Below are positions 22,053-61,892 of a DNA stretch of 64,000 bases, one piece after another (the stretch's first letter is position 1; the number at the start of each line of letters is the position of its first letter). The notes beneath the pieces are model-generated. The model saw only the letters and a list, made by a program, of their open reading frames with translations, did not search any database and had not been told where the DNA came from. Made by a program: the position numbers and the translations under genes. The stretch comes from Eledone cirrhosa (lineage: Eukaryota): positions 237,770,001 to 237,834,000 of the forward strand of contig OZ024740.1 of the NCBI GenBank assembly GCA_964016885.1, read 5' to 3'.

Positions 22053-22088
<36 letters not shown>

Positions 22089-22216: not shown

Positions 22217-22255
<39 letters not shown>

Positions 22256-22752: not shown

Positions 22753-22794
22753 TCTCGCAGATGTGAGAAAAACCACAGACCCTCCATCTCAACT

Positions 22795-27745: not shown

Positions 27746-27787
27746 TTATGCATAGGCCTGTGACAAAATACAGCATTCATACATAAT

Positions 27788-36531: not shown

Positions 36532-36616
<85 letters not shown>

Positions 36617-36622
<6 letters not shown>

Positions 36623-36840
36623 AAATTGAGGTTGGTAATAGCACATGGAATATATAAGAGACAGAATACTTTTTTGTGAAAAAACATATAATTTTATAAG
36701 GTAAGGAAATAATAAAGGGTATAAAACATTTTTTATACCCTTTATTATTTCCTTACCTTATAAAATTATATGTTTTTTCACAAAAAAGTATTCTGTCTCT
36801 TATATATTCCATGTGCCATTACCAACCTCAATTTTCTCTA
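36617..36840. repeat. ~220 bp near-perfect palindrome (centre ~36728)
   Basis: gagaaaattgaggttggtaat...gggtataaaa / cat / ttttataccc...attaccaacctcaattttctc. Confidence 0.93.
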
Positions 36841-36870
36841 TAACCTTCGTTTTGTGTAGTAAATTACACT

Positions 36871-36938
<68 letters not shown>

Positions 36939-36997
36939 TGAAACAAAATGAAAACGAAATTTCATTTCTCACTCTTAGTATGGCACTTACTTAAATG

Positions 36998-37585
36998 TAA
37001 GTATGCATGTATACGTACATACATATATGTATACAGACGTACAGTAGCATGCACATATATATATATATATACATATATATATACATATATATATACATAT
37101 GCATACAGGTACACATACATATATGCACGTATCAGTTTAGCGGCACTTATTATAACGTCGCTTTGTTCGTTTGTAAACAAACTGAACAGCCTGAATTTAT
37201 GCCATACGGTGTTAAGGCAATATGCAAATTAGGCTGCTCAGCCGTTAATTTTCATAAGGAAAGTATATACTTTCGAACGTTCAACTATCTGGCAGATGGG
37301 TAAACGGTGCTGATGATAGCTAACAAGCTTGAAACTAGTACATCGTTCCTGTGTCAGTGTTGAACAAAAAGGTGACGTGGTTGCCTTAACACCGTATGGC
37401 ATAAATTCAGGCTATTCAGTTTGTTTACAAACGAACAAAGCGACGTTATAATAAGCGCCGCTAAACTGATACGTGCATATATGTATGTGTACCTGTATGC
37501 ATATGTATATATATATGTATATATATATATATGTGCATGCTACTGTACGTCTGTATACATATATGTATGTACGTATACATGCATA

Positions 37586-37589
<4 letters not shown>
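36998..37589. repeat. Inverted repeat (arms 36998-37220 and 37381-37589) with a 160-bp spacer
   Basis: Arms are reverse complements; ORFs 36962-37180(-) and 37421-37645(+) share an N-terminus. Confidence 0.93.
37303..37347 (+). ncRNA. Minimal type I hammerhead ribozyme in inverted-repeat spacer
   Basis: aacggtg-CTGATGA-t agct aaca agct t-GAA-ACTAGT-A-catcgtt; 7-bp stem I, palindromic stem III. Confidence 0.8.
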
Positions 37590-37639
<50 letters not shown>

Positions 37640-37807
37640 TTTTGAGTTTATGTTGGTTGTATACCAATACCTCAGTATGCAGGCTGGAGCACTCGACTCC
37701 AGTTCCCCAGTGAATTAACAACCCAGCAAGGAACTGGGCATATCAGAGTATTGACAATATCATACACCTAAACAACATATGTACTTGTCTATACCATACT
37801 AATTCAA

Positions 37808-37862
37808 ACTGCCTGAAGAGGTCACAGCCAAAGATGGCTGTCACTGAAATATATATAGCAGT
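37808..37862 (+). ncRNA. Type I hammerhead ribozyme
   Basis: actgc-CTGAAGA-ggtcacagcca aaga tggctgtcact-GAA-ATATATAT-A-gcagt, then AATAAA. Confidence 0.85.
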
Positions 37863-37906
37863 AATAAACGAAGCTAAATTTTAATCATTTGACTTTTATT
37901 TAACTT

Positions 37907-37945
<39 letters not shown>

Positions 37946-38181
37946 TTTCAACAATGTCAGTATTCCGTGTGTCATAATTCTTGATTATCATTGGTTCATA
38001 GGTTTCAAACGACTCCGCCTACCTCAACGACGCCAAACTTAAATTAATATACATAATGCCAATGAGGGAGTGAGAGGGGAGAGTAAGAAACAGAGAGGCA
38101 AAGTGAACGCTGTAACTATTACCATGTGTGCGTGTGTATGTACGTGCGCGTATGTTTATGTGTGTGTGCGTGCAGCGGTAA

Positions 38182-38361
38182 CGGCGTGAAGCCAGGAATG
38201 AAGAAAAACGGGTCGAACAGCGCCATCGGAACGCCGAACTTCAAAGGCGGAGACGTGCCGCCATGAATGAAGAGGAGCTGGCTGAACAACGCCAACGAAA
38301 CACTGGAGCCAAACAGCGACGGCGTGCTGCGATGGTTGAAGACGAACTGGCTGAGCATCAT
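38182..38361 (+). pseudogene. Fragment encoding 23-aa charged helical repeats (STPR-like, typical of Helitron N-termini)
   Basis: Frame gives RREARNEEKRVEQRHRNAELQR/RRRAAMNEEELAEQRQRNTGAKQ/RRRAAMVEDELAEH. Confidence 0.55.
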
Positions 38362-38376
38362 CTTTTATATTAATTA

Positions 38377-38713
38377 TCTATATCTATATATAATATAAAA
38401 GATTGAAACTTCCATCATCCTTTTGAGAAACGTGGAACAACGTTTTACAGTCAGGCAGAAGATGAAGTATCTCCTAGAGGTCACTATTCTAGGTGGGAGC
38501 ACCTAGAATTGTTCATATACTATGCACAAACGGTACAACCAAGAATCTGGTATATCTGGAAGATTTTTTTTTTCTGTTTTTTTTTTGTATCACACAGACA
38601 CCACGGAGTCGCCACATACTGTAACCAGACAAACATCCAATACAGTCATTTTCTCTTTTACCTGTCTTCTCTTATCATCTGTTTACCGGGGCGAAGCTGG
38701 GTACGTCAGCTAG
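38377..38713 (+). mobile_element. Short non-autonomous Helitron
   Basis: 5' tctatatctatatataatataaaag; 3' GC hairpin ccggggcgaagctggg followed by CTAG|T. Confidence 0.65.
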
Positions 38714-38726
38714 TATATCATCATTA

Positions 38727-38832
38727 TCCTGCCGAGGTTGACTTTGCCTTTCATCCTTACGGGGTCGATAAAATAAAGTACCAGTAATGCACTGGTTAAT
38801 TGCTGGCCTTGTGCCTAAAGTAGAAACAATTA
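38727..38832 (+). mobile_element. SINE family A 3' fragment
   Basis: cctgccgaggttgactttgcctttcatccttacggggtcgataaaataaagtacc...gtagaaacaatta. Confidence 0.8.
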
Positions 38833-41572
38833 TCTATAAAAGGCAGATTGTTGTTGCTGTGTGTGTGTGTGCATGTTCCATGTTTATACATTTGCACAAT
38901 TTCAAACCGATTCGACTCAACGTCTGTAAGAATGTTGTAAATGGCCTAACTTAGGTCAACGACTATTTATTTCATTCAAACTCACCCACACTTACGAAAA
39001 TAATCGATAAAACTAAATACATGACGCTTTAACCCTCTAATAGAATCTGATTATCTCTCTCTACTCCCCTTAAAATTCAATAAAACTACATACATGCTTA
39101 CAAACTTCCTTTCGGAACGCCGAAGAGAGAGAGAGGACAGAGAGAGAACGTTTGTTTTTGAGTGTGGAACGGCCAAACATTTATTTACTTCAATGACAAA
39201 GAGAACTTTTACATTTCATACGAAACAACAATTATTCAAAAGCAACAGATAAATTTATTCAACAACAAAAAACATAGCGATAAATCTTTTTTAAAACCTC
39301 TCAACGAACGTGGAAGAAAGAAGTATCAGTTTATTTACTATACACAATAATATACTCTATGAGGTCACTAAACCTGCTAGAAATAGCAGCTAACTCTCCC
39401 CCATATCACACCACTCCATACTGTCTTAAATTTAGAAAACACATATCCTCTATGAGGTCACTAAACCTGCTAGAAACAGCATCTAACTCTCCCCCATATC
39501 ACACCACTCCCTACTGTCTTAAATTTAGAAAACATATCCTCTATGAGGTTACTAAACCTGCTAGAAATAGCAGCTAACTCTCCCCCATATCACACCACTC
39601 CCTACTGTCTTAAATTTAGAAAACACATATCCTCTATGAGGTCACTCTGCTAGAAACAGCAGCTAACTCTCCCCCATACCACACCCCTCCCTACTGTCTT
39701 AAATTTAGAAAACACACATTAGAAAACCATGCAGAACAACTCCATCGCAGCTCTGTTGTTCGGCTGGCATTGTCTACGCGTGTGTTGCGCAAGTACTGTG
39801 AAACAATAAATTTCAACACTTCTTTGCACAGAGATAATATCCATAGGCGAAACTACAATTGTCACTGCTGGCGCAGCTCCTGCTTCGGCAGTCCGGGTCT
39901 GCAATTCATTCACCCAGTGCCTGGCAGACAAAAAAGTGCTGCCATAAAATGGGTGGTGCAACCTAACTTTGGTAACTTACTGACCCCGAGCAACGCCGGG
40001 CTTTAATGCTAGTTATCTATAAAATGCAGATTGTTGTTGTTGTGTGTGTGGGTGCATGTTCCATGTTTATACATTTGCACAATTTCAAACCGATTCGACT
40101 CAACGTCTGTAAGAATGTTGTAAATGGTCTAACTTAGGTCAACGACTATTTATTTCATTCAAACTCATCCACACTTACGGAAATAATCGATAAAACTAAA
40201 TACATGACGCTTTAACCCTCTAATAGAATCTGATTATCTCTCTCTACTCCCCTTAAAATTCAATAAAACTACATACATGCTTACAAACTTCCTTTAGGAA
40301 CGCCGAAGAGAGAGAGAGGACAGAGAGAGAACGTTTTTTTTTAGTGTGGAACGGCCAAACATTTATTTACTTCAATGACAAAGAGAACTTTTACATTTCA
40401 TACGAAACAACAATTATTCAAAAGCAACAGATAAATTTATTCAACAACAAAAAAAATAGCGATAAATCTTTTTTAAAACCTCTCAACGAACGTGGAAGAA
40501 AGAAGTATCAGTTTATTTACTATACACAATAATATACTCTATGAGGTCACTAAACCTGCTAGAAACAGCAGCTAACCCTCCTCCCTATCACACCACTCCC
40601 TACTGTCTTAACTTTAGAAAACATATCCTCTATGAGGTTACTAAACCTGCTAGAAATAGCAGCTAACTCTCCCCCATATCACACCACTCCATACTGTCTT
40701 AAATTTAGAAAACATATCCTCTATGAGGTTACTAAACCTGCTAGAAATAGCAGCTAACTCTCCCCCATATCACACCACTCCCTACTGTCTTAAATTTAGA
40801 AAACATATCCTCTATGAGGTTACTAAACCTGCTAGAAATAGCAGCTAACTCTCCCCCATATCACACCACTCCCTACTGTCTTAAATTTAGAAAACACATA
40901 TCCTCTATGAGGTCACTCTGCTAGAAACAGCAGCTAACTCTCCCCCATACCACACCCCTCCCTACTGTCTTAAATTTAGAAAACACACATTAGAAAACCA
41001 TGCAGAACAACTCCATCGCAGCTCTGTTGTTCGGCTGGCATTGTCTACGCGTGTGTTGCGCAAGTACTGTGAAACAATAAATTTCAACACTTCTTTGCAC
41101 AGAGATAATATCCATAGGCGAAACTACAATCGTCACTGCTGGCGCAGCTCCTGCTTCGGCAGTCCGGGTCTGCAATTCATTCACCCAGTGCCTGGCAGAC
41201 AAAAAAGTGCTGCCATAAAATGGGTGGTGCAACCTAACTTTGGTAACTTACTGACCCCGAGCAACGCCGGGCTTTAATGCTAGTTATCTATAAAATGCAG
41301 ATTGTTGTTGTTGTGTGTGTGTGCATGTTCCATGTTTATACATTTGCACAATTTCAAACCGATTCGACTCAACCTCTGCAAGAATGTTGTAAATGGTCTA
41401 ACTTAGGTCAACGACTATTTATTTCATTCAAACTCACCCACAATTATGGAAATAATCGATAAAACTAAATACATGACGCTTTACTCCTCTAATAGAATCT
41501 GATTACCTCTCTCTACTCCCCTTCAAATTCGATAAAACTACATACATGCTTACAAACTTCCTTTCGGAACGC

Positions 41573-41637
<65 letters not shown>

Positions 41638-42323
41638 TTTGTTTTTGAGTGTGGAACGGTCAAACATTTATTTACTTCAATGACAAAGAGAACTTATTAC
41701 ATTTCATACGAAACAACAATTATTCAAAAGCAACAGATAAATTTATTCAACAACAACAAAAAAAAATAGCAATAAATCTTTTTAAAAACATCTATCAACG
41801 AACGTGGAAGAAAGAAGTATCAGTTCATTTACTATACACAATAATATCCTCTATGAGGTCACTAAACCTGCTAAAAACAGCAGCTAACTCTCCCCCATAT
41901 CACACCACTCCCTACTGTCTTAAATTTAGAAAACACATATCCTCTATGAGGTCACTAAACCTGCTAGAAACAGCAGCTAACTCTCCCCCATATCACACCC
42001 CTCCCTACTGTCTTAAATTTAGAAAACACACATTAGACAACCATGCAGAACAACTCCATCGTAGCTCTGTTCGGCTGGCATTGTCTACGCGCGTGTTGCG
42101 CAAATACTGTGAAACAATAAATGTCAACACTTCTTTGCACTGAGATAATATCCATAGGCGAAACTACAATTGTCACTGCTGGCGCAGCTCCTGCTTCGGC
42201 AGTCCAAGTCTGCAATTCATTCACCCAGTGCCTGGCAGACAAAAAAGTGCTGCCATAAAATGAGTGGTGCAACCTAACTTTGGTAACTTACTGACCCCGA
42301 GCAACGCCGGGCTTTAATGCTAG
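38833..42323 (+). mobile_element. Three head-to-tail non-autonomous Helitron-like units (~38833-40012, 40013-41283, 41284-42323), each with an internal ~91-93 bp minisatellite
   Basis: Each unit begins tctataaaa.gcagattgttgttg and ends ccccgagcaacgccggg-ctttaatg-CTAG; minisatellite copies 4, 5 and 2. Confidence 0.85.
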
Positions 42324-43179
42324 AATATAAATAAAAGTCAAATGGGGTCCGCCCGTGTGTCAATCCACTCGTGTGATAAATGAGTTAAAACGAAGGAAGG
42401 GGGTGTGTGTGAAAATTCTACATTAAAAAATCAAACAGCGTTTCAACGTTTGCACAAAGCTCTATGTGAGTATATGTGTGTGTAAGAGGGAGGAAGGGCG
42501 AGGTGAAAAAACTACGGCAAAAACAGCCAACAAACTTCCAAACTTTTCCACACTCTGCATGAGTGTATGTGTGTTTGTGTGAATGTATATGTGTGTGTTT
42601 GTGTGAGTGTATGCGTGTGTGTTTGCGTGAGTTCATCGGTATTTGTGGGTTTATATTTATACACACAAATATATATAACAACAATATTAATTCAATTGTA
42701 AATACATGTGCATATAACGATTCGAATGTAAATAATATATTCTATATGTTTGTATATATAAGAATATGTAATTATATATATAAACTCATTCTCCCAGCGA
42801 AGAGTTTGTTTATATACATAGGCAAACATGTATACACACGCACATACACACATTTTATGTGTATAGAAATCTATATATTTGCATATATCTGTTTATTTAT
42901 ATGCCAATGAGTGAATGAGAGGGGGAGAAAGAGAGAGAAAGTGTCTGTTTACTTCTCCTCCATCCCCTCCTTTTTCATTACAACTTCACCGTCTCTTTGA
43001 AGCATTTTGATAGAGAGAGAAATGTAAATAGTAGGAAAGAGCGTATAAGTGAGTGTGTGAGTGAGTTAGAAATAGAGAGTGAAAGAAACATACAGAGACT
43101 TAAATAGAGGGAGAGTTACAGAGGGTGAGAGAGAATGTGTGTGCGCGTGTGAGAGAGAAACACAGAATGAGAACGAGAC

Positions 43180-43252
<73 letters not shown>

Positions 43253-43495
43253 AAGTGTGAGAGAGACAACGCTTTGCTATTGTAGCAGTAATCATGGAAG
43301 TGAGGGAGGAGAGGAGAGTAAGTAATGGCAGAAAAAGAGAAAGAGAGCTACTTCTCTCTCTCTCATGAAAAGTTACTTCATAATTTCAAAACAAACGAAC
43401 ACAAATTTATACTTCTAAATGTTTGACGAAGGGTCGTTGCATTTGCTTATGTGTGCATGTATGTATGTGTGTGTATATGTGTGGGATTGTGTGAT

Positions 43496-43552
<57 letters not shown>

Positions 43553-43899
43553 GTGATACTTTGGCGTTCCACAATCGCGATTGATATATATGATGTCCCT
43601 GGTGAAGATATTCATGTAACTTTCATTCATTTTTCATTTAATCCCAATTTCAACAACTGCACGCAGGGCCAGTAAGTGTCAACAGGCAAGGGAAAAACAG
43701 TCAGAACAATTATGTCAACAAAATACAACCCACAGCAGCCAAGAATCAAAAGAGGAAAGAGAAAAATGTTTAAAGGATGTAAGACAAAGACAAGCTGCCA
43801 GAGTTGCCAATGAGACAATAGGTCAGCGAGATATTAGTCAAAGAAAAAAACCAGGAGCAAACAGTTGCTGCAGGACTTCACCAATCCTCAGAGGAGAGA

Positions 43900-46800
43900 C
43901 GTATGTGTTTTGATCAAGATAGGCTAAATACGTTTGACAAAAGTGGACTTGGAAAAGATCAGCTTTCAACTATGATCCGAAACATGATTATTCTACAGAG
44001 AAATTGATTGGTACTGGAGCAATGTCAAAAGAGTGCAATTTTTGTAAAGGAAAGGAATGGGAAAGAGAAACCCTCATTATATGTTGGTGGAGGAGGAACG
44101 GTTGTTCTATCGATGTTTCTTGCACACACACCTCCCCACCCCCCAGATACTTTGAAGACATTGCTTTGGGGAGCATGCTCTTCTTGAAAAACATTAGAAG
44201 TTACAATTCTACTTTCCAAATGAGATCTTTTGGTAGCAATATTATAAGAGAAGGGAACATGAAGCCAGCCTTTAAGGTTTGAGGTCAACTATACCATCAT
44301 ATTGGATCTTTGTTGCCAACTGAAGGTAAAATCCACAGTTTTTGCAGTTATATTTTGTGTCAAATTTCAAGGACCAAGCTTTGCAACGGCCATTGGACCT
44401 TCCAAATCTGAAAGAAGAGTTAATCTTTGATCTGCAAGATATGTTGCATGTAAACAATAGCTACACCAGAAAATTCTAATATGCATTGGAATCTGCGCCA
44501 CTAAAATGTAGTCACTGAAACAGACAAAAAGCCTGTTGGTGAACACAGAGACTGCTACAATGTCCCTGCTGCAAATGAAGTAGCAGCAATTATTACTGGC
44601 GATGAGTATGGGAGGAGGGATATTTTTATTCAAGGAAGAGGAAATAAGATGTTGCAGATAAATACAGCCCACCAATCATATGATGCACTCTAGTATCCAT
44701 TAATCTGTGTATTTGGCCAAGATGGATATCAGTTTGGTATTGTGGCAGTTGCCTCCCTTGTTGTGACTCACAACCCCAATAGATTAACAACATCTAGACG
44801 GGAAGTGGAACCCTTTCTGTAACTTCCGGTCAGAACCCTATAAAACTAACAACTTTAAGTTCTCACTCTCTCATTTGCCCTTCCGGCGCCTGGCCTTCGC
44901 CAGGCGTCTTCTGCCAGCCTGCGTTTGCATGGCAATCAAAACGGTAACTACTAACTTTGCTTCATTGTTTCATCTATTTCTTTGACATGTCAACTATACT
45001 GTTAAATTGTTGATTAAATATTATACACACAAACCATGTCTCCTTGTTACATTCATACAACCCAGTATCTTCGCTATAGTATCAAACAAACAGATCTTTA
45101 AACACCTGCTCCTGCACTGACAAAAACAGTAAGCTACGTGGAATTCTATGCTTACCCTTTCATATTAATAGAGCAAGACTTTAATATTCTTCATCATTCA
45201 CGTGAGCTCTTCCAGCAATTTGCAGTTGATATGTATGCATAAATTGAAGGAGAAAGGCTCTTTATATTAGAACACATCAGAAAGATCTCTGTGCATCAGA
45301 TTGCATTCACCTGAAAGATGCAATCAGTAATGAAGGTGCATTGCTGTTGATATCATTGGACAGTTTTGTGTCAGTCTTCCATCAAGCTTTACAGGAAATC
45401 CACGGTATATGCATGAGTGTACCTAACATGCACATGCATATGTCAGACACTATGGTCGTCCAAACCTCTTCATTACATTCACATGTAACCCAACATGGCA
45501 TGAAATAAAGAGTGAGCTTTATCATCATCAAGAACACAAAGATCGCCATGATATTATAGCTAGGGTGTTCAGACTGAAAGTCATAAAGCTAATGGTTCTT
45601 CTAAAAAAAGGTGAATTTTTTGGACCAGTCAAATGTGACACATATCCAACTGAATGGCAAAAACGAGGATTGCCACATTCCCACATTTTGATTTGGTTAC
45701 ATGAAAAACTTCGGCCAAATGATGTTGATTTATTTATCTCAGCTGAACTGTCTGATCCACAGCAAGATCCTTTGTTGCATGACATTGTCAAGTCACAGAT
45801 GATTCATGGGCCCTGTGGTTAAATTAATCCATCCTCCCCATGTATGAGGGATAAAAAGTGTACCAAAAAACTACCCCCGCCCCCCTATACAATAAACCAA
45901 AACTGAATAAGATGGCTATTTCATTTACAGGAGAAGAAAACCTGAGCAGGGTGGATTCACTTCGAAAAAAAAAAAAATGGGCAAGAATTTATCATTGACA
46001 ATTGGTGGATTGTACCCTACTGTTATCTTCTTACAAAAACTTTCAAAGCCCATATCAATGTTGAATTCTGCAACTCTGTTAAGTCTATTAAGTATGTTTG
46101 CAAATATATAAACAAAGGTTTAGATGCTGCAGCATACAATCTTTTGCAGAATGGCAGTCAGCAGATAAATAAAAATGACAAAGTTATACAGTATGAGAGC
46201 AGGTTACACCAGTAGCAATGAGGCTTTTTGGCGAATTTTCCCATTCATGAAAGGCGCCCAGCCATCATTCAACTGATCATTTTGCATGAAGTACGTTGTT
46301 CCAAATCATTCCAAGATTTGAGGAGAGTCAATGCGTGAAACATATAGGGTAGCATGCTATCAAAAGGTTTGTTAGAAAATGATTATCATTGGGACCTTGC
46401 ATTAACTGAAGCATCAGTGTCATATTTTCCAAGGAAATTCCGTAACCTTTTTGCCATTACACTGAACATGTGTCAACTTGGCAGTCCTCGACAACTTTGG
46501 ATGAAACATCAAGAGGATATGGCTGGGGACTTAAAGTATGCAGCTCAATATGCAAACCCAAGCACAAGCATTGACATTCAGTTCTGTGAAGAAATTTTCA
46601 ATCAAACATTGAATGAAATTGAGGATCAATTTTGGTCATGGGAGGCAGGAATTTGCAAGAGTCTGGTTCTGAACTGTCAAAATCAAAGTGATTTAACTTC
46701 AAGAGAGACAAAGTTAGTGGCATTTGTGAATGAACATGAGCCTAAACATCTTCCAGAACAACTCTGGGCATATTATGAAATCATTTCGTCAGTCAAGAGG

Positions 46801-47690
46801 AATTTCCTTTCTTGTTGCTCCAGGTAGCAGAAGTAAAGTATTTATAACAACATTGCTTCCCTCCAAGGTAAGGTGGTAAAAAAGAATTGCAATTGCTGTC
46901 GCATTGTCTGGTATTGCTGCGACCCTTCTCCCAGGAGGACAAAGAGCCTATTCTGCTTTTAAATTACTGCTAAATTTGGTCACAAATGACAGTTCAATTT
47001 GTAATATAAGCAAAGGCTCAGATTTAGCAGAAATGTTGTGCCATGTCATCTGATCCTTTGAGATGAATGTACCATGTGACATAGAGGAGCAATGGCAGCT
47101 CTTGATAAGACCTTACAGGACATAAGAGACAACAATACATCTATGGGAGGAGTTACATAAGTTTTATCAGGAGACTTCAGACAGAAATTATCAGTCATTC
47201 GGGAACAAGAGCTGATGAAATAAAGTACGGAATTTCTCCTTCAATACTAACATGCAAGCTTTATTACACTGGGACCAATGTACAGAACATTTCTCAACTT
47301 GACACCTTCAAATAGGAAATGGGGCAGTACCGATTCATGGGTATGGTTATATCAACTAGGCTCATATTGCTATCATGGCAGATTCGCCAGCTGAATTGAA
47401 GAACAGGATATTTCCAGACTTGAGTAATCATTATAATTTACACAAATGGTTGTGTGAAAGGGCAATTCTTGCTAAAAAAGATGAAACAGTAGCAAGGATT
47501 AACTATGAGCTAATGAATAAGATTCCAACAGTAATTAAGGAGAACAAATCAGAATTGATTTCCTCATGTACCTCAATTGAAGAATAAATGGAATTTAGAA
47601 TAACAAATTTCTATCAACATGTTTTCTTTTCTTCTGCTAATATATAAGGAACACTTTCATTCCTGAGCAATGCCAAGTGCATCTTTTAGA
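43900..47690 (+). mobile_element. Decayed autonomous Helitron Rep/helicase
   Basis: YGRPNLFITFTCNP (~45451), EWQKRGLPHSHILIW (HUH motif, ORF 45565), MIHGPCG, HINVEFCNSVKSIKYVCKYINKG (~46051), PIF1-like SGIAATLLPGG (~46908), GDFRQ (~47169); putative 3' end cctgagcaatgccaag...ttag at ~47662-47689. Confidence 0.9.
44741..45078 (+). mobile_element. Solo LTR (Gypsy-like 4-bp TSD) nested in the Helitron
   Basis: TGTGGC...GCTATA termini, GTAT duplicated at 44737-44740 and 45079-45082, internal TATAAAA and ATTAAA; removal restores Helitron frame GQDGYQFGIKQTD. Confidence 0.75.
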
Positions 47691-48120
47691 AGGCCTATGG
47701 CCTTTATCGATTTGTCTGTGTGCCTGTCTGTCGTACATGGTGCAAAAAGCTTTGTTGTGGTAACCTGTCTTGCTAGAAATGACAGTGAAATAAAACCTTG
47801 CCCATATCTTATTACTTGATAAGAAAACACTTTACATACGTATATGCCTACATATGTTCATATGTATATATGCATGCATACATTTGTGCATATATATAAG
47901 TAGAAATCATACTAAATATGGAACATATCAACATGATGAAGTCATTCCGACTCATCTGCTTTCTGACCATAAACACCAGTCCAATCCATGCAAGCGTGGA
48001 AAGCAAACAAAAGACAATGATGATGATGACATATATATATATGTATATATATATAATAGTAGAACACTGGTGGGTTATATCCGTAGTAGTAGAGCACTCA
48101 GTCCATGGGACCAGTTTGGT

Positions 48121-48275
48121 AGAAGTAGTTCCACAACAGTTAGTTCACCATTACCGAGAACAGAACAATTGTTTCACCCTATTTGGATCATCCGCTCGCT
48201 TTAAACCGAATAATGGTCCGAATAAGGTGAAACAATTGTTCTCAGTAATGGTGAACTAACTGCTGTGGAACTCCT
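48121..48275. repeat. Inverted repeat (~65-70 bp arms) overlapping a degenerate hammerhead motif
   Basis: agttccacaacagttagttcaccattac...aacaattgtttcacc / ggtgaaacaattgtt...gtaatggtgaactaactgctgtggaact. Confidence 0.85.
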
Positions 48276-48914
48276 TATATATATATATATATATATATAT
48301 ACAAGTGGAAGCTTAGTAAAATCGAAGCTTTGGCTGTGGCCAAGCTAACGACCTAGGAATGAGCAGCAAAGCACTCAATAAGGTAGGCGCTTAGAGTAAT
48401 AACATACGTTTAGATAGCTTAACAAATTGAAAATTGCGGCAGGCAGACCTAGCCACACAATACCAAAAACAACGAAAAAACTAATCAAGTTAGACAACTG
48501 ACCTGGACATATTGAACGATATTTGGCAATACGTCCGATAGGTTTCTATGAAATCCGAAATCATCCATCCAGCTTACGTAATGATCGAACAGAGGATTCA
48601 CATCATCAACAGGAAATTTTGTTCTATGCCTCAAGCCGGTGTGAAATGTAACACTGAACTCCCATCGTTGGCAGCCCTCAGTGTTTTACTATCACGTGTT
48701 ATTTCCAACAAGGGAAGTAACCCCCGGTTTTTGGCGGGTAAATTCAAAGTGTGAACAAAGGAAATCAAGTCCGTTCCACATTCCGAATGAAAAGCTCTCG
48801 ACTAGACGTTATTAAACAAACATAAATAATTAACCAATCAATGGAATTGTCTAATTAAATTAATTAGTTAATCATTAAGCCTAGGAGATAATAATACAAG
48901 TGGAAGCTTATATA

Positions 48915-51170: not shown

Positions 51171-51630
51171 GGATGTCCAAGGAGGAAATAACAACAAGGA
51201 GAAAGAGCAGCCTTCATGAAAAATCCCTTCATAGTACTTTCTTTGAGGAAACTGAATTCAGAGATCCACAGACATGGAACTGGTTGAAAAGAGGAGACCT
51301 TAAAAAGGCTACAGAAGGAATGTTAATGGCTGCGCAAGAGCAGGCCCTCAAAACGAAGTGGTTGAAACACCATATTTACAAGGAGGAGGCTAGCCCACTG
51401 TGCAGGATCTGTGGAGAGAGAGAGGAGACTGTGGCTCACATTGTATCCGAGTGTAAACACCTAGCCCAGACTCACTATAAGGGCTGGAGACATGATGTGA
51501 TGGGCAGGGTGATCCACTGGCACCTATGCAAAGTAAACAATTTACCACAGTCTGAGAAGTGGTATGAGCATAAGCCAGAGTCGGTGATAGAAAACGATCA
51601 GGTGAAGGTGCTGTGGGATTTTAGGATACC
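51171..51630 (+). mobile_element. R4-like C-terminal fragment
   Basis: WLKRGDLKKATEGMLMAAQEQAL...CRICGEREETVAHIVSEC...RHD...VLWDF. Confidence 0.85.
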
Positions 51631-52870
51631 AATTCTTTTGATGGGGCAGGTCAAAATGCTTACACATTATCCAATGTATGTATTGTGCAGCTCTGTTATG
51701 CCTGTTTAGGTATTCGGTTGGAGCTATAGAACTGCACATTGAAATTATATGATCAATGGTCTCTGGTTGTTTTTTACATACACGGCATAATGGGTCGCAT
51801 CCATTTTTTATTATGTTGGCTTGGTAATTTTTTGTTGGCAGACACTGATCTTTTGCTGATATAATCAGTCGTTCAGTCTCCTATTTCAGTCCAGAGGATG
51901 CCAACCACTGATGGGTTAAAGTTTTGTCAACATCAGGATTGTTAGTTCTTTCTGGGTATTTTCCATACGAAGGCCTTTCTTGCCATTTCCTAGCCAGTTT
52001 CTGTACCAGTTCTTTCTTTGCAGTTACTTTTACCTGCTTTGCTTTTTCTGTGTTTTCCATTTCAGCAGTAAATGGGTCTTCTGACATTTGTAATCCATTA
52101 CTGTATCTTTGTGCATCTTTTGTAATGGAGTATGATCTTTTGATGCTTTCGTGTTTCAAAACGAGTTTGATCATCCAAACATGTGATTCCCTTAGATATG
52201 TAGATACTCCAAATTGTTGCAGTTTTCAACGCAATATGTAACTGGATTAACCCACGTCCTCCTTCTTTCCTAGGGAGACATATTTTATCTGTATCTGCCT
52301 TAGGGTGATGTATTCTGTGCATGCTTAAGAATTTTCTAATTTTTGTATCGAGCCTACGGATCTCTGTGCTTGACCAATTGATGACATTGTAACTGTAGGT
52401 TACTACTGGTATGGCAAGTGTGTTTATGGCATCGATCATATTCTTTGCATTCAATTCCGTTCTTAAGATTGATCTTACTCTGCGGTAACATTCCTTCCTT
52501 ATCCTTTACTTCATTGTTGAGTGCTTGATTCCGTCTCCTTCACAAACACCTCGATATTTGTAAGTTTCCTCTTGATCAAGTTCTCTTATCACATTCCCCC
52601 GATCAAGATTAATGTCTGAACTTCTCAGCAAGTTTCCTCTGGTGAACGTTGCTTTGGCGCATTTATCTAGTCCAAACTCCATTTTAATGTGATCACTGAA
52701 CTGCTCCACAGTGGATAATAGCCCTTGCAATTGTTCATCATTTTTTGCAAATAGTTTCAGGTCATCCATGTAAAAAAAGTGATTAATGGTTTTGTCATAG
52801 ACTTTATATCCATGTTTTGTTTCATTGAGCATTTTACTTAATGGTATAAGTGCGATGCAGTATAAAAGCG
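51631..52870 (-). mobile_element. R4-like fragment on the opposite strand (RT to zinc knuckle)
   Basis: NHFFYMDDLKLFAKN, FGLDKC, RKEGGRGL, THQWLASSGLK, RHNRAAQYIHW. Confidence 0.85.
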
Positions 52871-52944
52871 GTAGCGATGATGGAGTGGTGATGGTGGTGA
52901 TGGGGGTAGTAGTACTGTAGATTATTATTATTATTATTATTATT

Positions 52945-54146
52945 CCATCTGCTGCCAGCACCCTCTAAGCGGAGGGTTGGGCATGCCGTGGCTAATGATG
53001 CGCAGATATACTCTGAGGCAGCAACATCTCCAGATATTCTGCCTAAACGGTGAACAGGTGTGGTCGCCGTTTATCAGATGGGCCTTTCCGCAGCTCGTTT
53101 CTTTGACTGAGCTGCAGTCCTGGGTCAAGAATAGACCAAGACTGGGGTGACTGGCACCTGGAATGTTTCCAGGCACTCACTGCCCTCTACCAAGCGGGCA
53201 ATGCGATCAGTGGAACTTCCACTCTCCAGTTCTATAGAGGATTAGTGGTGGGCAAGTGCGATGACGCACTCGGAGAAGCTTTAAGCCTCGGCGAAGTCGA
53301 ACTGACCAGTCTGTACCGGAGGAATTTAGAGCCGGGGATGATGGACAATTTCCAGAAATCCCTTGCTTGGCAGTGCTACCGGGGGGCACTGCCGGTTCGG
53401 GATAAACTCTACAGGCACGGAAGTGCTGTCAGACGGACCTGCTCAAGATGCGCACAGAACGACGAAACCGTTCTGCACGCACTTGTCCAATGTCCGTGCA
53501 TTACTGACTTGTGGAGTTATGTCGAACAGCTACTGTCGCGTGTAGAACGGATCCGGCTATCGGCCGAGTCCATAGTGAAGATCGACCCGCCGCCATCCTT
53601 TGGTCAGGAAGAGCAACCAATTTTCCTCTGTCTGGTGGCCGTTGCAAAAGAGGTTATATGGTGGACCAGATTGAAAGGACTGAAGACAGACACTTTTCTC
53701 TTCGGCCAATCCCTCATCAACTTCTTCAAGTTTCACCTGGAAAGGAAGGTGAGGGTGGAGAAAGAAGTGCTGCCCCCCCCCCCCCAGTTCATTTGCTAAA
53801 AGGTGGATGAATGTGGCGAGAATGGCCCATGTGAATGGGCCTACTCTGACCATGCGCCTATAGGCTAGCTAACTTGAGGAGAGGGGTGCTCTCCCTGGGT
53901 GCCCTAGAAGCACAGGGTGGTTCAGGATTGGTGGGGTACCTGAGTCACCCCTGGGTCGTCCACCCCCTATATGGGAATTTATTTTGTTATATTTATGCAT
54001 AGTTTATTTTATATTTTTATATCTTCATTGTTAAATTAGTTTTGCCATTGTGCACTTTTACTCGACCTTATTGTAAACCCCCACTGTCCCTGTCTTTGTA
54101 TTGTCAGCCCTTGTGGCCAATAAATGAAATCATTATTATTATTATT
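52945..54146 (+). mobile_element. L1/Tx1-like 3' fragment flanked by (ATT)n on both sides
   Basis: LAWQCYRGALPVRDKL...CSRC...ETVLHALVQC; 3' AATAAA plus (ATT)n at 54119-54146; (ATT)n at 52921-52944. Confidence 0.8.
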
Positions 54147-55400
54147 GTACATGCCATATAGCTTTGTCTCTATCATAAAAATTGAGTTCCCTTTAGGCTC
54201 TACTGATACTATAGAGTGTATACACAAAGAGATGATTATTCTCACAGAACCTTACTTAATTCTTCCTCTTAACTTCAACCACCTTGGTAATTCCTAACTA
54301 TTTCTATTGCTTTCTATAATCTGAATTTTCATAAATTTGAGGTGGCATCAACGACATTAATTTTACTTAGCAGACTCTATACCACAATGAAGAAGTATCG
54401 GGAAAAAACAACACTTATTAAGAAAACAAAATAATTTAAAATTCTTCAATCTAGGAAAAAATGTTTACCAGGGAAACCTTTCTATAAAATTTCCCAAATT
54501 TTAAAAGCTTTATTTTGATTGATTCATTCGAATCTATTTGGAGAAGAAAAAATATGAAATGTTGGTTGTTCTGCCACTCATAATAGAGGGAAAGAGAGAA
54601 GAAGAGAAAGGAGGAGAAAAGGGGAGAGAGAGAGAAACTAAAAATGTTTAAACAGAAACAAATTTTCTGTAAACTTCTGGATACATAAATTCATAACACA
54701 ATGGGTCTCTCTAGTTCTCTTTTGCCCACACTCTCTCCATATCTCTCTCTCTCTCTCCCCTCTCTCTCTCGAATTATTTGCTATTCAATTATTATGTAAG
54801 GGTTTCTCTTGTAGAAATTGTATATATGTTATATATATATTGAAACAGGAGTAGTTTCTCTCTCTTTCTCTCTTTCTTTCTCTCTCTCTCTCTGTCTCTT
54901 CTCTCTTTCGCTTTCTCTCTCTTCTCTCTGTCGCCTTTTTTCTCTCTTCTCTCTCTCTCTATTCTGTCTCCCATCTCTGCCACCCCTCCTCCCACCTACC
55001 CATCATCTCTCTCCAAACTGAACTGAAACCTGAAACACAACTTTCAAAAAAAAAAAAGATAGGAAAAGAAAGTATATCTAAGGTTTATATACCATGCTAA
55101 TGACCAACGAGACAGAAATACACCTATGGTGTCCTCGGCCCTAGGGCTACCTCCCTACTCACCACCATAGGCGCTGAGCTGGCCAGCTGCAGGTGAGAAA
55201 CCCGTGAGTTGGAGTGGCTTTTCCAGCACGTCCCCCTTGCCGTCCCCTGGGGAAACGCCTCCTCCTTCCTGTCAGCCGGGGATGTGGGGGGTGGGGGGCA
55301 TCGCGTAACATTCCATATTTAAGTAAGTAAAAGTAAATATGTATGTCTGTTAAAATCTTGTGAATTTCTTTAGTGTTTTCATCACTAAAACATTGTTCAT

Positions 55401-56469
55401 AGTATAAATATGGTTTTAGTGAAATGACAGTATAAATATGGTTCTAGTGAACTGGCAGTATAAATATGGTTATAATGAAGTGACAGTATAAATATGGTTC
55501 TAGTGAAATGGCAGTATAAATATGGTTTTAGTGAAATGACAGTATAAATATGGTTCTAGTGAACTGGCAGTATAAATATGGTTATAATGAAGTGACAGTA
55601 TAAATATGGTTCTAGTGAAATGGCAGTATAAATATGGTTTTAGTGAAATGACAGTATAAATATGGTTCTAGTGAAATGGCAGTATAAATATGGTTTTAGT
55701 GAAATGGCAGTATAAATATGGTTCTAGTGAAATGGCAGTATAAATATGGTTCTAGTGAAATGACAGTATAAATATGGTTTTAGTGAAATGACAGTATAAA
55801 TATGGTTCTAGTGAAATGACAGTATAAATATGGTTCTAGTGAAGTGACAGTATAAATATGGTTCTAGTGAAATGGCAGTCTAAATATGGTTCTAGTGAAA
55901 TGACAGTATAAATATGGTTCTAGTGAAGTGACAGTATAAATATGGTTCTAGTGAAATGGCAGTCTAAATATGGTTATAATTAGGTGACAGTATAAATATG
56001 GTTCTAGTGAAATGGCAGTATAAATATGGTTCTAGTGATATGACAGTATAAATATGATTCTAGTGAAATGACAGTATAAATATGGTTCTAGTGAAATGAC
56101 AGTCTAAATATGGTTCTAATGAAGTGACAGTATAAATATGGTTCTAGTGAAATGACAGTATAAATATGGTTCTAGTGAAATGGCAGTATAAATATGGTTC
56201 TAGTGAAATGACAGTATAAATATGGTTCTAGTGAAATGGCAGTATAAATATGGTTTTAGTGAAATGACAGTATAAATATGGTTTTAGTGAAATGACAGTA
56301 TAAATATGGTTCTAGTGAAATGGCAGTCTAAATATGGTTCTAATGAAGTGACAGTATAAATATGGTTCTAGTGAAATGGCAGTCTAAATATGGTTCTAGT
56401 GAAATGACAGTATAAATATGGTTCTAGTGAAGTGACAGTATAAATATGGTTCTAGTGAAATGACAGTAT
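55401..56469. repeat. 28-bp minisatellite, ~38 copies
   Basis: Unit agtataaatatggttctagtgaaatgac. Confidence 0.97.
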
Positions 56470-56583
56470 TTATGACTTAACTACGTAGTTCGCTTTTTTT
56501 TTTTTACATTCTTCATAAAGTGGATTCAAATGGACCAATCAAAATAGAGCTTTTTGAAGTAATGAATCTTCACCATTATAAAT

Positions 56584-57868
56584 GACATACAGGAAAGGCT
56601 TGCTTGTTTCTTTACTGGTTACTGAATGTTGTGTATAAGGAGGTTCCAATATAGTTCAACCTCAATATGACTAAGTCATGATAGGATTTTCTGAGTTTCA
56701 TAAGCTGTTATCATATAGTTTTGTATCATTTTTTATTATATGAGCCAGACTTAAATATGGTGAGACTCAGAGCTACAAAATACTTTAGGAGCCTTGCCTG
56801 GCAATTTTTCAATTAGAAGCAATGTCTACTAAGATGTAAGAAAGGAAAAATAATATGTTGTGTTCTCCTATAGGTATACACACACTGAAAAATATGGTCC
56901 TAACTGAAACAAAGGGACAAAAACTTAATAACCTGTAATACCCTGTAATGATTTAGCTAAAAATATCTAAAAATAAGTTTGTTAATTTAAATGTTTGTAG
57001 TATCTTTACAAGAGGAAATTGTGAAAATTGGCAATAAACAAAAGTAAAGACTAATTTGATATTTTTAAGTTGCTGTCGTAGTGCTGTTTTCTACTTTTCA
57101 AACATACTAATTGGTTTTACATGTGGTACAGAGTATTAAGAGTTAAACAAAGACAATTTTTTTGTAAACAGATCTGCCAACTTCTAAAAACCCAAACAGG
57201 TAGTACCATGAAAAAAAGTACCCCAAAATGGGGAGAAATGAGGCAAAAATAGGGAGATTTTACATAATTGTTTCTACTTTAGGCACAAGGCAAGCAATAA
57301 TCCAGTGCATTACTGGTACTTTATTTTATCGACCCCGTAAGGATGAAAGGCAAAGTTAACCTCGGCGGGATTTGAACTCAGACTGTAAAGGGACGTAACT
57401 ATGCTAGAAAGCATGGCGTCCGACTCTCTACCGATACTGCCAATTCCCCGCATGAAAGCTATACCCATTTTCACAAGAGAAGACATCTCTCACCCACCCC
57501 AAAGACTATTGCAAATCTCCCCATTGGACAGGGAAGGTTGACAGGTCTGTTCTAATAAATGGACACAAATTTTCCATTAACTTCTGGATTCATAAATTCA
57601 TAAGTTTAGATTGTCACTATGTGACATACAGGGAAGGCTTGCTTGTTTCTTTACTGGTTACTGAATGTTGTTTATAAGAAGGATCCAATATAGTTCAACC
57701 TCAATGTGACTAAGTCATGATAAGATTTTCTGTGTTTCATCAGCTGTTATCATACAGTTTTGTATCATTTTTGATTATATGAAAAATATGTATGATGATG
57801 CTCAGAGCCAGACTTAAATATAGTGAGACTCAGAGCTATGAAATCCTTTAGGAACCTTGCCTGGCAAC
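56584..57868. repeat. Direct duplication of a ~220-245 bp segment (56584-56805 and 57623-57868)
   Basis: gacatacagg.aaggcttgcttgtttctttactggttactgaatgttg...ccttgcctggcaa present twice. Confidence 0.85.
57265..57445 (-). mobile_element. SINE family A copy (diverged relative at ~58905-59105)
   Basis: Reverse complement of family A head, B box and core. Confidence 0.85.
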
Positions 57869-59661
57869 TTTTAGCAGAGAATAAAGCTATGTAACAACTG
57901 AACTTGGCAAGATAGCCATTGGGAAGCATAAAACATTTATGTTGTCTGAAGGCGGTGTATGATCCAAGGAAATCCAGGTCTATCTTCTGATGGTACAATC
58001 CTCATATACACAGACAAGGCTGAATAACTCTCTTGATGAAAGGAGCACTTTGAAAAGTTACCTTTTAAAATTGCCTTTAATCCAATTTCAAGCATTTATC
58101 ATCCATTTTCCTTGTAAGGGTTGGTCGGTTGATTTAGTGATAATGTTAATTTTCGTTAATTAGGTTTATTAGATGAAATCATTATTAAATATATGAAGCC
58201 TTTTCAGACAAAGAAGTTATAAACTGTAGCTTGTTGAACTTATGCTTAAATCTGAGCCAGATGATGTTGTTTAATGTCATCACTGAAGAGGTTTACTGTG
58301 AGCTGTATTGGCCAAGGTAAATGACATAGGTAAATAGAAATATTTGTTACAAAACTAAACTTAGTTTCTCTCTATATAGTAATGTTGACATTTCACTGTT
58401 TCACCACTTGCACCACTTCAAAGTTCTAATGGCAACATGTAACAAACAAATCAGATTTAAAGATTTCTTCTTTCATCTCTGCTGTTTTCTTCATCAATTT
58501 GTCACTAGTTCATTGGGTGAGGGTTGGATAGGATTTACACAGTTCAGTAAGTTAAAAAAAGAACTCACAGCTGAATTTTATCACAGTTTACATGATAGTT
58601 AGAACTTTTAAACTCATTCTCTCTTATAAACACATATATACACCAGGTCTAAACACAAGAGAACCAAACTCCTACTGTCACTGCCTCCATCTCTCCTCAT
58701 CTCTCACTATTGTGAACAAATGGGGGCCCATGCATTAGCTGTCCCGCAGCCCCGGTGTACAGAATAGAGAAGGCATTTCCCTGGAGCTTGGTGAGGGAGA
58801 CACGCTAGAAGAGCCATTCCAGCTCATGTACTGAAGTCAGTATAATTGATTCCCCTTCCCTCAAAATTCAGTTAGAACTAAAATTCCATTTTTGATGGTT
58901 TCTAATATAGGCACAAGGCCAGAAATTTTGAGAGAAATGGAAATCAATTATATTGACTTCAGTACATATCTAGTGTTTTATTTTATTGACCCAAGAAGGA
59001 TAAAAGACAAAGTTGATCTCACCAGTATATGAACTCAGAATATAAAGAATTGGAACAAATGCTGCTAAACATATGTCTGACTCTCACCACTCTGCCAGTG
59101 TCACCACCCTTCTAATGTTAATAATGAGATCTCTACTTTTTTCTTAAGGTCATCACTGTTAGTGACATTCATTTGCTGTGATGATTTAACATGCTGAGCC
59201 ACACATATACAATAGTTTCGTTAACTTTTCCCCTCACCTTCTCTTCCTATATTCTGTATGTGAGTGAGTGAAGGAGGGAGGGAGAAAATGTGTGTGTGCA
59301 AATGAGTTTATGTGTGTATGTGTGTGTGTCGTGAGTAGAGAATGAGCGTCTGTCTGTGTGTGAAGAGAATGAGTGTGTATGTGCCTGTGGACTGTAGACC
59401 TTTAAAACCATACCATTGAAGTGATCACTTCTCTCTCCATTCTACATCCTTTATTACCACTGTCATCAACATGAATCAGAAGAAAGTTGAATATATTTTG
59501 AACGAAATTTGGGTGCTGTTTCTAGCAAATCAAACGACCATGTACACATTCCCTTATTAACTCTATATGACATATATGTGTAAGTACAATTGCTACCGCA
59601 AAAAAACATTGCATGCATGCAAGCATCGATGTAAAATGTGACACACACATATTTGGATATA

Positions 59662-59972
59662 TCATCATCATCATCATCATCATCATTTTACATCCGCTTT
59701 TCCCTGCTTGCAAGGGTGGGACGGGAACTGATTCTGGCTTGATTTCTACAGCTGGATGCCCTTCCTAACACCAACCTCATTTACAGTGAGTGCTGGGTGG
59801 TTTTTTGCCGTGGCACCTCCACGACCACTTTGCAGTGGAGTGATATGGACCCCAGTCCTATCATCTCATTTCTACAGCTGAGTAAACTGGAGCAATGTGA
59901 AATAAAGTGTCTTGCTCAAGGAAACAACACATCACCCGGTCTGAGAATTGAACTCACAACCTTTTGATTGCA
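59662..59972 (-). mobile_element. SINE family B copy, head partly truncated
   Basis: Closely matches 11638-11925; (GAT)n tail. Confidence 0.85.
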
Positions 59973-59996
59973 ATATATATATATACTATATATATA

Positions 59997-60055
<59 letters not shown>

Positions 60056-60058
<3 letters not shown>

Positions 60059-60380
60059 TCATCATCATCATCATTTTATGTCCGCTTTTCCCTGCTTGCA
60101 AGGGTGGGACGGGTCTTATTCAATACAACATCTCTCCACTTGTCAAGGTCCTTCGTCATCTCCACTGTGAGCTTCAGCGATCTGACGTCTGCTCTCACCA
60201 CCTCTGCCCATGTTTTTCGTGGTCTTCCTCTACTACGTCTTCCTTCAACTGGCATGTCTTGGCACTTCTTCACCCATCGGTCATCCTCCATGCACCTCAC
60301 ATGTCCATACCATCGCAGTCTCCTCTCTCGCACACTACAATTTATCCCTCTCAGACACAGTTTCTCTCTCAACACATCCA
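60056..60380 (-). mobile_element. RTE LINE family B, short 3' fragment
   Basis: [12 protein letters not shown]...RGRPRKTW...PTLASREKRT; (GAT)n tail. Confidence 0.88.
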
Positions 60381-60871
60381 TATATATATATAGTGTATTG
60401 GTGTGTAATGTTTAGTTACTGATGGTTCATACGACATCCGATACCTGAACTGAAGGTCTGCTGTGTGAAGGGTTCAGCATGGCCAACTGGCCAGTCCATC
60501 CTCATAGCAGTGCCATCCAGTCCCAGGCTCCTAAAATGGTGTTTCGTATTGAGAAGTGTTCATCACATGGAGAGTGCCTGGCTCCGAAATTGGAGTGCCA
60601 CTGTGCGAAGGGTTCGGCGCAGCCAACTGGCCTTTCCCTCCACATAGTGGTGCCACCCAGTGCCAGGTTCCCACACTGTGGTTCCACACCTGTCCTTCCT
60701 CATAGTGGTGTCATCCAGTACAAGGCCACAAAACTATGGCTACTCTGTGAGATGGGTTAGGCTCCTCATATCAGTGATGTCCAGTACCAGCCTCCAACTG
60801 GTCCCTCCATATAGTGATGCCATCCAACGCCAGGCTTCCAAATTATGGTTCCCCACCTCAGAAATGTTTGT

Positions 60872-61232
60872 TGCTCCTACAAGACAATGCAAGACCACAT
60901 ATTATCCAAATTACACAGAACAAAATTTTTACATTTAATATGGATTTGCCTCATCTTCCGTATTCATATGAGCTTTCTCTATCAGATTATCATCTTTTCA
61001 GAGCATTGCAGCATATTCTAAATGGAAAATAGTTTACCAATCGAGAAGAGGTAAAAATGGACAATCTGAAGACTCTTATGCTAGAGGGATCAACAACTTG
61101 CCAGTCAGATGGGATTATGTTATTAAAAATGAGGGAAAAGATTATCTTGATTGAATATATCTATCATGACCAAATAAAAGTTTTTTTCCTTTCCTTGTCT
61201 AAAATGTGACAGGACTTTGATTCCAACCTAAT
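60872..61232 (+). mobile_element. Mariner transposase relic with probable right TIR
   Basis: LLQDNARPH...PHLPYSYELSLSDYHLFRALQ; ends ggactttgattccaacctaata followed by TA. Confidence 0.8.
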
Positions 61233-61367
61233 ATATATATGTGTGTGTGTGTGTATATATATATCAAAGTTAGAACTATATTAAGTCATATCTCATTCGA
61301 AATGTTTGTAAGGGAATAAATACAGTTTTTTTTTTATGAAAGAAGATTAATTTTCCATTAATACCTT

Positions 61368-61395
<28 letters not shown>

Positions 61396-61402
<7 letters not shown>

Positions 61403-61835
61403 ACTAGAAATTGATTGACATATATATATTTAAAATAAACACATGAAACAATCACAGGGGATAATTTGTAAAGTGTGTAATCACACACAGCTAGGTAGGT
61501 AACTAATTGAAGTTTAGAATTGCAGCACATGTGACGGGTCACTCGTAGATTTGTATTTGATGCGTAAACACAGACAATTATTTCTTCCTCCTTGCTGATG
61601 ATCTAAGATTTAACTACTGTGACTTTATGGATTTTTAGTGAAATATATTTCTTTAATGAAATATATACAAGGAGGATTAATCATTTTTTAAAAGGTAATA
61701 TTTGAAGATCTAGTTAAACTTTAATTAGTTACCTACCTAGCTGTGATTACACACTTTACAAATTATCCCCTGTGATTGTTTCATGTGTTTATTTTAAATA
61801 TATATATATATGTCAATCAATTTCTAGTTGATATA
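61396..61835. repeat. Inverted repeat (arms 61396-61516 and 61715-61835) with a ~200-bp spacer
   Basis: tatatcaactagaaattgattgac...taggtaggtaactaatt mirrored by aattagttacctaccta...gtcaatcaatttctagttgatata. Confidence 0.92.
61586..61676 (+). ncRNA. Type I hammerhead ribozyme, monomer-competent, in inverted-repeat spacer
   Basis: tcctccttg-CTGATGA-tctaagattt...ggatttttagt-GAA-ATATATTTC tttaat GAAATATAT-A-caaggagga; 9-bp stem I and 9-bp stem III. Confidence 0.85.
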
Positions 61836-61892
61836 AAATGCTCGGATCTATTTATTGGAATCTTTGAGCTTATTCTACAGTGAATATGGCGC

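Follow-up and report, generated by a model that had tools for sequence, protein, structure and literature searches.

The enzymes of Penelope-like elements (PLEs) introduce nicks into both strands of AT-rich DNA and use two start sites. In PLE insertions, 5′ truncation and an inverted truncated copy are the documented norm (PMC8557442 Fig. 2). Head-to-head arrangements are the most frequent insertion form, self-priming has been proposed, and host DNA is captured between the pseudo-long terminal repeats (pLTRs) (PMC3846280); inverted pLTRs are a routine feature of PLE curation (PMC8969392). A PLE protein studied in vitro cuts and extends both strands and starts at two sites, the interval between them forming a tail; insertion is independent of ribozyme cleavage, and the ribozyme of that element cuts only with the protein (PMC11167929). 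The origin of the inverted ends is still undefined (PMC8557442; PMC11167929). Animal genomes hold thousands of single PLE ribozymes of low activity, ascribed to truncated copies and including opposite-strand pairs, and the U3-A8 core variant is known from PLE hammerheads (PMC4209133). Penelope-13_HM, of the Hydra clade, has an annotated 5′-truncated inverted copy that carries the ribozyme (PMC8557442 Files S1 and S2). Retrozymes are tandem by definition (PMC7229834; bioRxiv 10.64898/2026.07.22.740005). Among the titles and abstract openings covered, which did not extend to subscription papers, none treats lone ribozymes flanked by inverted PLE ends as a distinct class. Such structures were analyzed here in a 64,000-nucleotide window from Eledone cirrhosa (GCA_964016885.1, contig OZ024740.1, positions 237,770,001 to 237,834,000), in which type I hammerhead ribozymes lie in the spacers of inverted repeats; these loci are referred to as cages.

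This layout is what PLE integration is known to leave behind, and it is probably an ordinary outcome, not a novel type of element. The cages are, with good confidence, heavily 5′-truncated insertions of several PLE families, which probably belong in or near the Hydra clade; what is new here is likely to be unnamed families of a known PLE kind. The loci resemble the inverted-pLTR insertions of endonuclease-bearing (EN+) PLEs in their 5′ truncation, head-to-head inverted truncated copy and (TA)n targets and, apparently, in an extension confined to one end (PMC8557442; PMC3846280; PMC8969392), and they share with EN+ PLEs a type I hammerhead near the 3′ end. They differ from EN+ PLE insertions in being only 250–650 bp long and frameless, with no autonomous partner identified; truncated copies of this length have no room for an open reading frame.

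The original prediction of intact type I hammerheads in the spacers of two inverted repeats was borne out for both, with the ribozymes placed to the nucleotide (by descriptor, with none in 40 shuffles). In cage 1, the arms (36998–37220, minus strand; 37381–37589, plus strand) align with 207 matches, 2 substitutions over 209 aligned bases and one 14-nt indel. The left arm is an inverted, more truncated copy of the element 3′ end, and the right arm is the 3′ end of the longer copy, which runs into (TA)n at 37588–37637. Between them, the 160-nt spacer (37221–37380, plus strand) is the unduplicated part of the longer copy and has no second copy within the window. The spacer holds a plus-strand ribozyme (37303–37347) with a 7-bp stem I, a stem II of a U.U pair plus 4 bp and a short palindromic stem III of the dimer type, which is predicted to cut mainly as a dimer. 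The arm starts 34 nt past the ribozyme. A 62-nt one-sided extension (36936–36997, minus strand) lies on the inverted copy, between (TA)n at 36875–36935 and the arm, and is likely a PLE tail rather than host DNA.

Cage 2 has the same plan. Its arms (61396–61516, minus strand; 61715–61835, plus strand) show 116 matches, 1 substitution over 117 aligned bases and two 4-nt indels, and enclose a 198-nt spacer (61517–61714, plus strand) that is again the unduplicated part of the longer copy. The left arm is the inverted truncated copy and abuts (TA)n at 61372–61400; the right arm is the 3′ end of the longer copy. The plus-strand ribozyme (61586–61676) has a 9-bp stem I, a long stem II and a 9-bp stem III, and the predicted fold suggests that it could form, and cut, as a monomer. 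In this case, the arm starts 39 nt past the ribozyme, and the 59-nt extension (61836–61894, plus strand) reaches the start of a long interspersed nuclear element (LINE) fragment at 61895, its outer end being undefined. The extension contains a GCTC-hairpin-GAGC motif at 61840–61869, which occurs in the window at chance level (7 instances, 5.4 expected). The cages had been described as abutting (TA)n, which holds for one side of each; the other side carries 59–64 extra bases.

A third inverted pair, at 48120–48279, is real and older, with 53 matches, 5 substitutions and one 5-nt indel. It had been put forward, at 48121–48275, as a decayed case of the same design. The inverted repeat stands, but the broken hammerhead is on the minus strand, lacks its first three core bases and lies half inside the arms, around a spacer of only ~24 nt. 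The plus-strand arm begins inside stem II, and a 64-nt one-sided extension (48056–48119, minus strand) on the longer copy lies next to (TA)n at 48044–48055.

The fourth related locus lies around 22 kb, where a hammerhead had been proposed (at 22795) beside a 1.2-kb palindrome. A plus-strand motif is present at 22798–22833 but is weak: its core is of the U3-A8 type, its stem I spans just 3 bp, and 5 of 200 shuffles give such a match. The 3′ end of this element (22836–22909) continues through a 62-nt extension into (TA)n (22836–22971, plus strand). The same family 3′ end recurs as a head-to-head pair, without extension on either copy, at 22084–22222, the center of the palindrome (21553–22752). 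The 22836 family is therefore found both one-armed (22836–22971) and two-armed (22084–22222), and with both kinds of 3′ end, extended (22971) and unextended (22084, 22222). These two 3′ ends are as expected from the two start sites of PMC11167929. The family 3′ end also occurs as a direct repeat 686 nt apart (22150 and 22836), a partial tandem that has no counterpart in cages 1–3. Several further observations concern this locus. Between 21553 and 22971, about 500 bp of mixed sequence separates the two direct 3′-end copies, like host DNA captured between pLTRs. The outer arms of the palindrome match at 491 of 500 positions, and its center starts 5 nt past the predicted cleavage site of the neighboring U3-A8 ribozyme family. 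The arms also contain short pieces resembling the unit of a tandem array at 14900–20150.

A common polarity links cages 1, 2 and 3 and the pair at 22084–22222: in each, the 3′ side of the ribozyme is duplicated and the 5′ ends face inward, head to head. The point of truncation varies: the arm starts 34 nt past the ribozyme in cage 1 and 39 nt past it in cage 2, the cage 3 arm begins within stem II, and a ribozyme is missing altogether from two similarly built palindromes (36620–36840 and 22084–22222). A one-sided extension was found in four of the five (TA)n-associated inverted pairs examined, the exception being 22084–22222; these extensions measure 62, 59 and 64 nt in cages 1, 2 and 3, respectively, and ~35 nt in the 36620 palindrome. 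A fifth extension, of 62 nt, belongs to the one-armed 22836 element. The ribozyme lies 45–240 nt from the element 3′ end. This combination of polarity, truncation, extensions and (TA)n targets supports the PLE connection, and the inverted duplication made by integration, that had been suggested at the outset. The caged configuration itself is optional in both directions, since ribozymes occur outside inverted repeats and inverted repeats occur without ribozymes, the junction point varies between copies, and an inverted truncated copy is the PLE norm; the proposal of a recurring caged design is thus not upheld. We infer that a cage is a by-product of where truncation falls.

The type I hammerhead search used a purpose-written descriptor over the window, with block-wise dinucleotide shuffles as controls. 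Four complete motifs were found, at 37303–37347 (plus), 61586–61676 (plus), 37808–37862 (plus) and 23033–23097 (minus), and each of 40 shuffles gave none; under a stricter stem II rule there were two motifs, a number reached in none of 200 shuffles. A relaxed scan allowing two core mismatches added one unconvincing match (30941–30988) and missed two of the complete motifs through its stem II rule. An Rfam scan of the window returned no hammerhead family in 62 matches up to E = 1, so the ribozyme assignment relies on the descriptor, the folds and, for ribozyme 2 only, one compensatory change. The Rfam microRNA matches in the window were rejected as microsatellite noise. Ribozyme 2 folds much better than its shuffles (z −5.9, 0 of 200), and ribozyme 1, taken alone, does not stand out to that degree (z −1.6, 11 of 200). 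Each of the six ribozyme motifs, which are not all independent, has a (TA)6+ tract no more than 200 nt away, compared with 15% of random positions; the window has 49 TA tracts of at least 10 bp. Local inverted repeats make up <5% of the window, yet two of the four complete ribozymes lie in the spacers of such repeats; a shared origin accounts for this excess without invoking design. The other two (37808–37862 and 23033–23097) are uncaged.

One of these uncaged motifs belongs to a (TA)n array at 36532–37942 that accommodates three consecutive inserts of unrelated sequence. The first is a palindrome that lacks a ribozyme and lies between microsatellite tracts (36620–36874; arms of ~108 nt with 1 substitution, a 3-nt center and an extension of ~35 nt on one side). 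Cage 1 is the second, and the third is an uncaged hammerhead element with a (TA)n tract on either side (37638–37911, plus strand; ribozyme 37808–37862). A nearly full LINE frame begins at the left end of the array. The other uncaged type I hammerhead (23033–23097, minus strand) lies ~45 nt from (TA)n, and each of the two uncaged motifs is 45–50 nt from such a tract.

Placement near the Hydra clade draws on a U.U pair with which stem II begins in each caged ribozyme, the closeness of the ribozyme to the 3′ end and the (TA)n preference (PMC8557442 Files S1, S2 and S7). The U.U pair is not damage; among the Hydra-clade rows of PMC8557442 File S2, no other form is as common. A weaker likeness, judged by eye, is the GCTC-hairpin-GAGC motif of the cage 2 extension, which resembles sequence near the ends of some Hydra consensus sequences; compared with the Hydra rows of File S2, ribozyme 2 has a longer stem III (9 bp). 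The clade is defined by the phylogeny of its reverse transcriptase and endonuclease and by a linker motif; the loci described here, which have no coding sequence for either enzyme, are likened to it by ribozyme, 3′-end and target features. Five short motifs from the window were absent from the PMC8557442 supplement, where line breaks can hide matches. The dispersed PLE hammerheads of PMC4209133 offer a further parallel in their single motifs, opposite-strand pairs 100–700 bp apart, the U3-A8 variant and a palindromic stem III that needs a dimer. Pairs in which the two inverted copies both retain the ribozyme are noted there, whereas here only the longer copy has it. Animal retrozymes without long terminal repeats are likewise short and non-coding, carry a type I hammerhead and are likely PLE-derived (PMC7229834; bioRxiv 10.64898/2026.07.22.740005), but they are head-to-tail tandems with at least two ribozymes, and the loci here are single and inverted.

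Reads were examined for the cage 2 family, by alignment to one stretch of 493 bases (61402–61894) in 4 of 13 runs: X1, X4 and X5, which are contigs, and X11, the raw reads of a reduced-representation (restriction-site-associated DNA, RAD) library. The alignment concerned the cage 2 family alone and, within the stretch, passed over positions 61784–61894. Matches comprised 1553 contigs in X1, 54 in X4 and 13 in X5, and 1838 of 12.5 million raw reads in X11. From these counts, the family is dispersed and present in at least hundreds of copies; the share of reads corresponds to ~400 copies per gigabase, a rough figure given the reduced-representation library. The 13 contig pieces of X5, which carries a different organism label and was the one run aligned out of six small-share runs from other organisms, match over 61402–61742, and the family may be shared with a relative.

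In other copies, the 3′ half of the ribozyme and the arm form one co-linear unit (pieces 61638–61742 in X1 and X5), and other inverted junctions were found at 61480>61747, 61487>61754 and 61506>61640 (X1) and at 61429>61513 (X4). Both arms of cage 2 share their letter at 61430, 61442 and 61481, where 59–78% of raw reads (39–77% of X1 depth) differ, indicating a single source for the two arms; variants at 61412 and 61507 were left out of this count because they sit in AATT sites. At 61509, the left arm differs from nearly all reads and the right arm agrees with them, as expected for a mutation after insertion. Family copies also show a single compensatory pair of changes in stem II (61604 T>C and 61637 A>G). 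Depth on the 5′ part of the cage 2 spacer is lower than on the 3′ part by ~30-fold in raw reads and >100-fold in contigs, at least partly through subfamily divergence in stem II. Three readings of the alignments were set aside. The sharp depth step at 61638 could suggest a site of recurrent truncation, but loose ends at that position look like stem II and point at least partly to the same subfamily divergence. The RAD read ends at 61463, 61466, 61508, 61518 and 61726 all fall on AATT sites and are likely restriction ends rather than element boundaries. Four opposite-strand joints between an arm and the right-hand part are explicable as co-linear copies split across both arms and were not counted.

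The proposed mechanism accommodates these features. The element endonuclease would nick both strands of a (TA)n target, and each nicked strand would prime reverse transcription on the element 3′ end at one of two start sites, the choice of which would leave a one-sided tail. Both products would stop early, at different points, and then be joined; where the longer copy extends past the ribozyme and the shorter does not, the ribozyme would be left in the spacer. The cage 1 extension bears on the manner of priming: it is on the shorter copy and could not have been supplied by fold-back of the longer one, which favors two priming events if it is a true tail. It may instead be host DNA.

Several observations weigh against PLE insertion as the full account. 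Four of the five extensions (59–64 nt), which are putative family tails, exceed the 30–40 bp published for EN+ PLEs, and target-site duplications are unreadable within (TA)n. Each alternative junction in the cage 2 family is represented by a single contig, no aligned read piece in the four runs spans cage 2 end to end, and the ratio of summed arm depth to that of the ribozyme 3′ half (~0.5–1.1 in raw reads, 1–2 in contigs) gives no consistent share of two-armed copies. PLE insertion accounts only in part for the outer arms (500 bp each) of the 1.2-kb palindrome. When short upstream frames were compared with protein databases, no PLE reverse transcriptase or GIY-YIG endonuclease was linked to any family. 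The cage 1 frame had no match among 5.8 billion clustered proteins longer than the query or among 1.84 billion representatives, searches that are weak at 28–40 residues, and sequence-pattern scans for longer family members gave none in metagenome contigs and none in viral contigs. The frames that precede ribozymes 1 and 2 (28 and 26 codons) were weighed as possible C-terminal ends of an endonuclease and rejected; they had no Pfam match, and frames so short are common by chance. Shuffled sequences fold as well as the putative tails do (z from 0.3 to −1.7).

The same absence of a coding link, together with the very high copy number of the 3′ part, could instead indicate dedicated non-autonomous PLE derivatives that are short, never linked to a frame and mobilized in trans, with the inverted arm still made at insertion. 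Non-autonomous pLTR-bearing elements are known (PMC8557442; bioRxiv 10.64898/2026.07.22.740005), and the 686-nt partial tandem at 22150–22909 resembles host DNA carried between element ends (cf. PMC3846280). Set against this are the lack of tandem ribozyme units in the window and the limited meaning of absent protein matches, as the 70–80 nt upstream of a Hydra-type ribozyme would, judging by consensus sequences, be untranslated anyway. The explanation also overlaps with that of truncated PLE insertions, as the cage-forming mechanism is identical. The claim that these are non-autonomous families is thus not established, since coding PLEs, once 5′-truncated, would look no different and the two were not told apart here; we treat trans-mobilized derivatives as a tentative possibility. 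The accompanying retrozyme-like label is not supported, because each ribozyme-bearing segment occurs once in the window and not in tandem.

The remaining explanations carry far less weight. That the whole cage is a mobile or selected unit, a hairpin RNA whose self-cleaving loop feeds ADAR or Dicer, might be suggested by the placement of half of the complete ribozymes in spacers despite the small fraction of the window covered by local inverted repeats, and by predicted folds that keep stems I and III of ribozyme 2 within the loop. It is very unlikely given the uncaged ribozymes, the empty palindromes, the arm that starts inside a ribozyme and the different junctions elsewhere; the 30- to >100-fold deficit in depth over the 5′ part of spacer 2 also runs against it, even if partly due to subfamily divergence. 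Miniature inverted-repeat transposable elements or foldback DNA transposons, inserted at TA and carrying a ribozyme by chance, would account for long terminal inverted repeats that adjoin TA. Such elements have fixed symmetric termini and move whole, whereas the ends here are asymmetric, with one-sided extensions, and the junctions variable; moreover, unrelated families all duplicate the ribozyme 3′ side, one sequence occurs both one-armed (22836–22971) and two-armed (22084–22222), and ribozyme and arm are co-linear in other copies, which makes this origin highly improbable. Least credible are inverted arms created by assembly or by fold-back in the library. The lack of a read piece bridging cage 2 would fit an artifact, and the best-matching runs may come from the assembly's own sample, but no pair of arms is free of substitutions and indels, the spacers (160–198 nt) are unique, and the left-arm base at 61509 is unlike nearly all reads while the right arm is like them, as a mutation after insertion would be expected to leave them.

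Beyond these loci, the window is eukaryote-like and repeat-rich (GC 32–46%), and the long open frames checked are LINE-type and Helitron elements. A LINE frame of 1065 codons (33560–36757, minus strand) encodes an endonuclease, a reverse transcriptase and a PHD-like finger after the latter, with related fragments at 24.5–26.5 kb, 32.4–32.9 kb and 61.9–63.9 kb. Helitron helicase-like fragments occupy 45427–46827 (Pfam Helitron_like_N, E = 2.5e-29 for 45427–45819). The array at 14900–20150 is a ~5-kb tandem repeat with a 48–50-bp unit and long open frames. Clustered short dispersed repeats in both orientations (27783–28945 and 58826–58967) produce more local inverted pairs, which are ribozyme-free, and there is a weak tRNA-like match at 11893–11950 (E = 0.19).

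For annotation, these results add unnamed PLE-like families and suggest that, where animal genomes are rich in (TA)n, a ribozyme within a short palindrome is likely to be an insertion remnant. Two details stand out, namely extensions of ~60 nt shared by four unrelated families and the copy on which the cage 1 extension sits. Very short, young, high-copy insertions that show both junction and tail in <700 bp provide material from which fold-back and two-strand priming could be told apart. The original prediction also proposed that a read-through transcript would form a double-stranded RNA stem with a self-cleaving loop, a potential ADAR or Dicer substrate. Folding predictions do give long stems (−398 and −216 kcal/mol), and the hairpin is probably incidental. 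A bolder combination is doubtful: that there are many ultra-short PLE-mobilized units, some never linked to a frame, with a conserved ~60-nt start-site spacing, that cage 1 records two-strand priming by a PLE dimer, and that caged copies are a genome-wide set of hairpin RNAs with self-cleaving loops feeding editing or silencing. If caged copies were shown to be transcribed, cleaved, and edited or diced, they would constitute a new, large source of endogenous double-stranded RNA.

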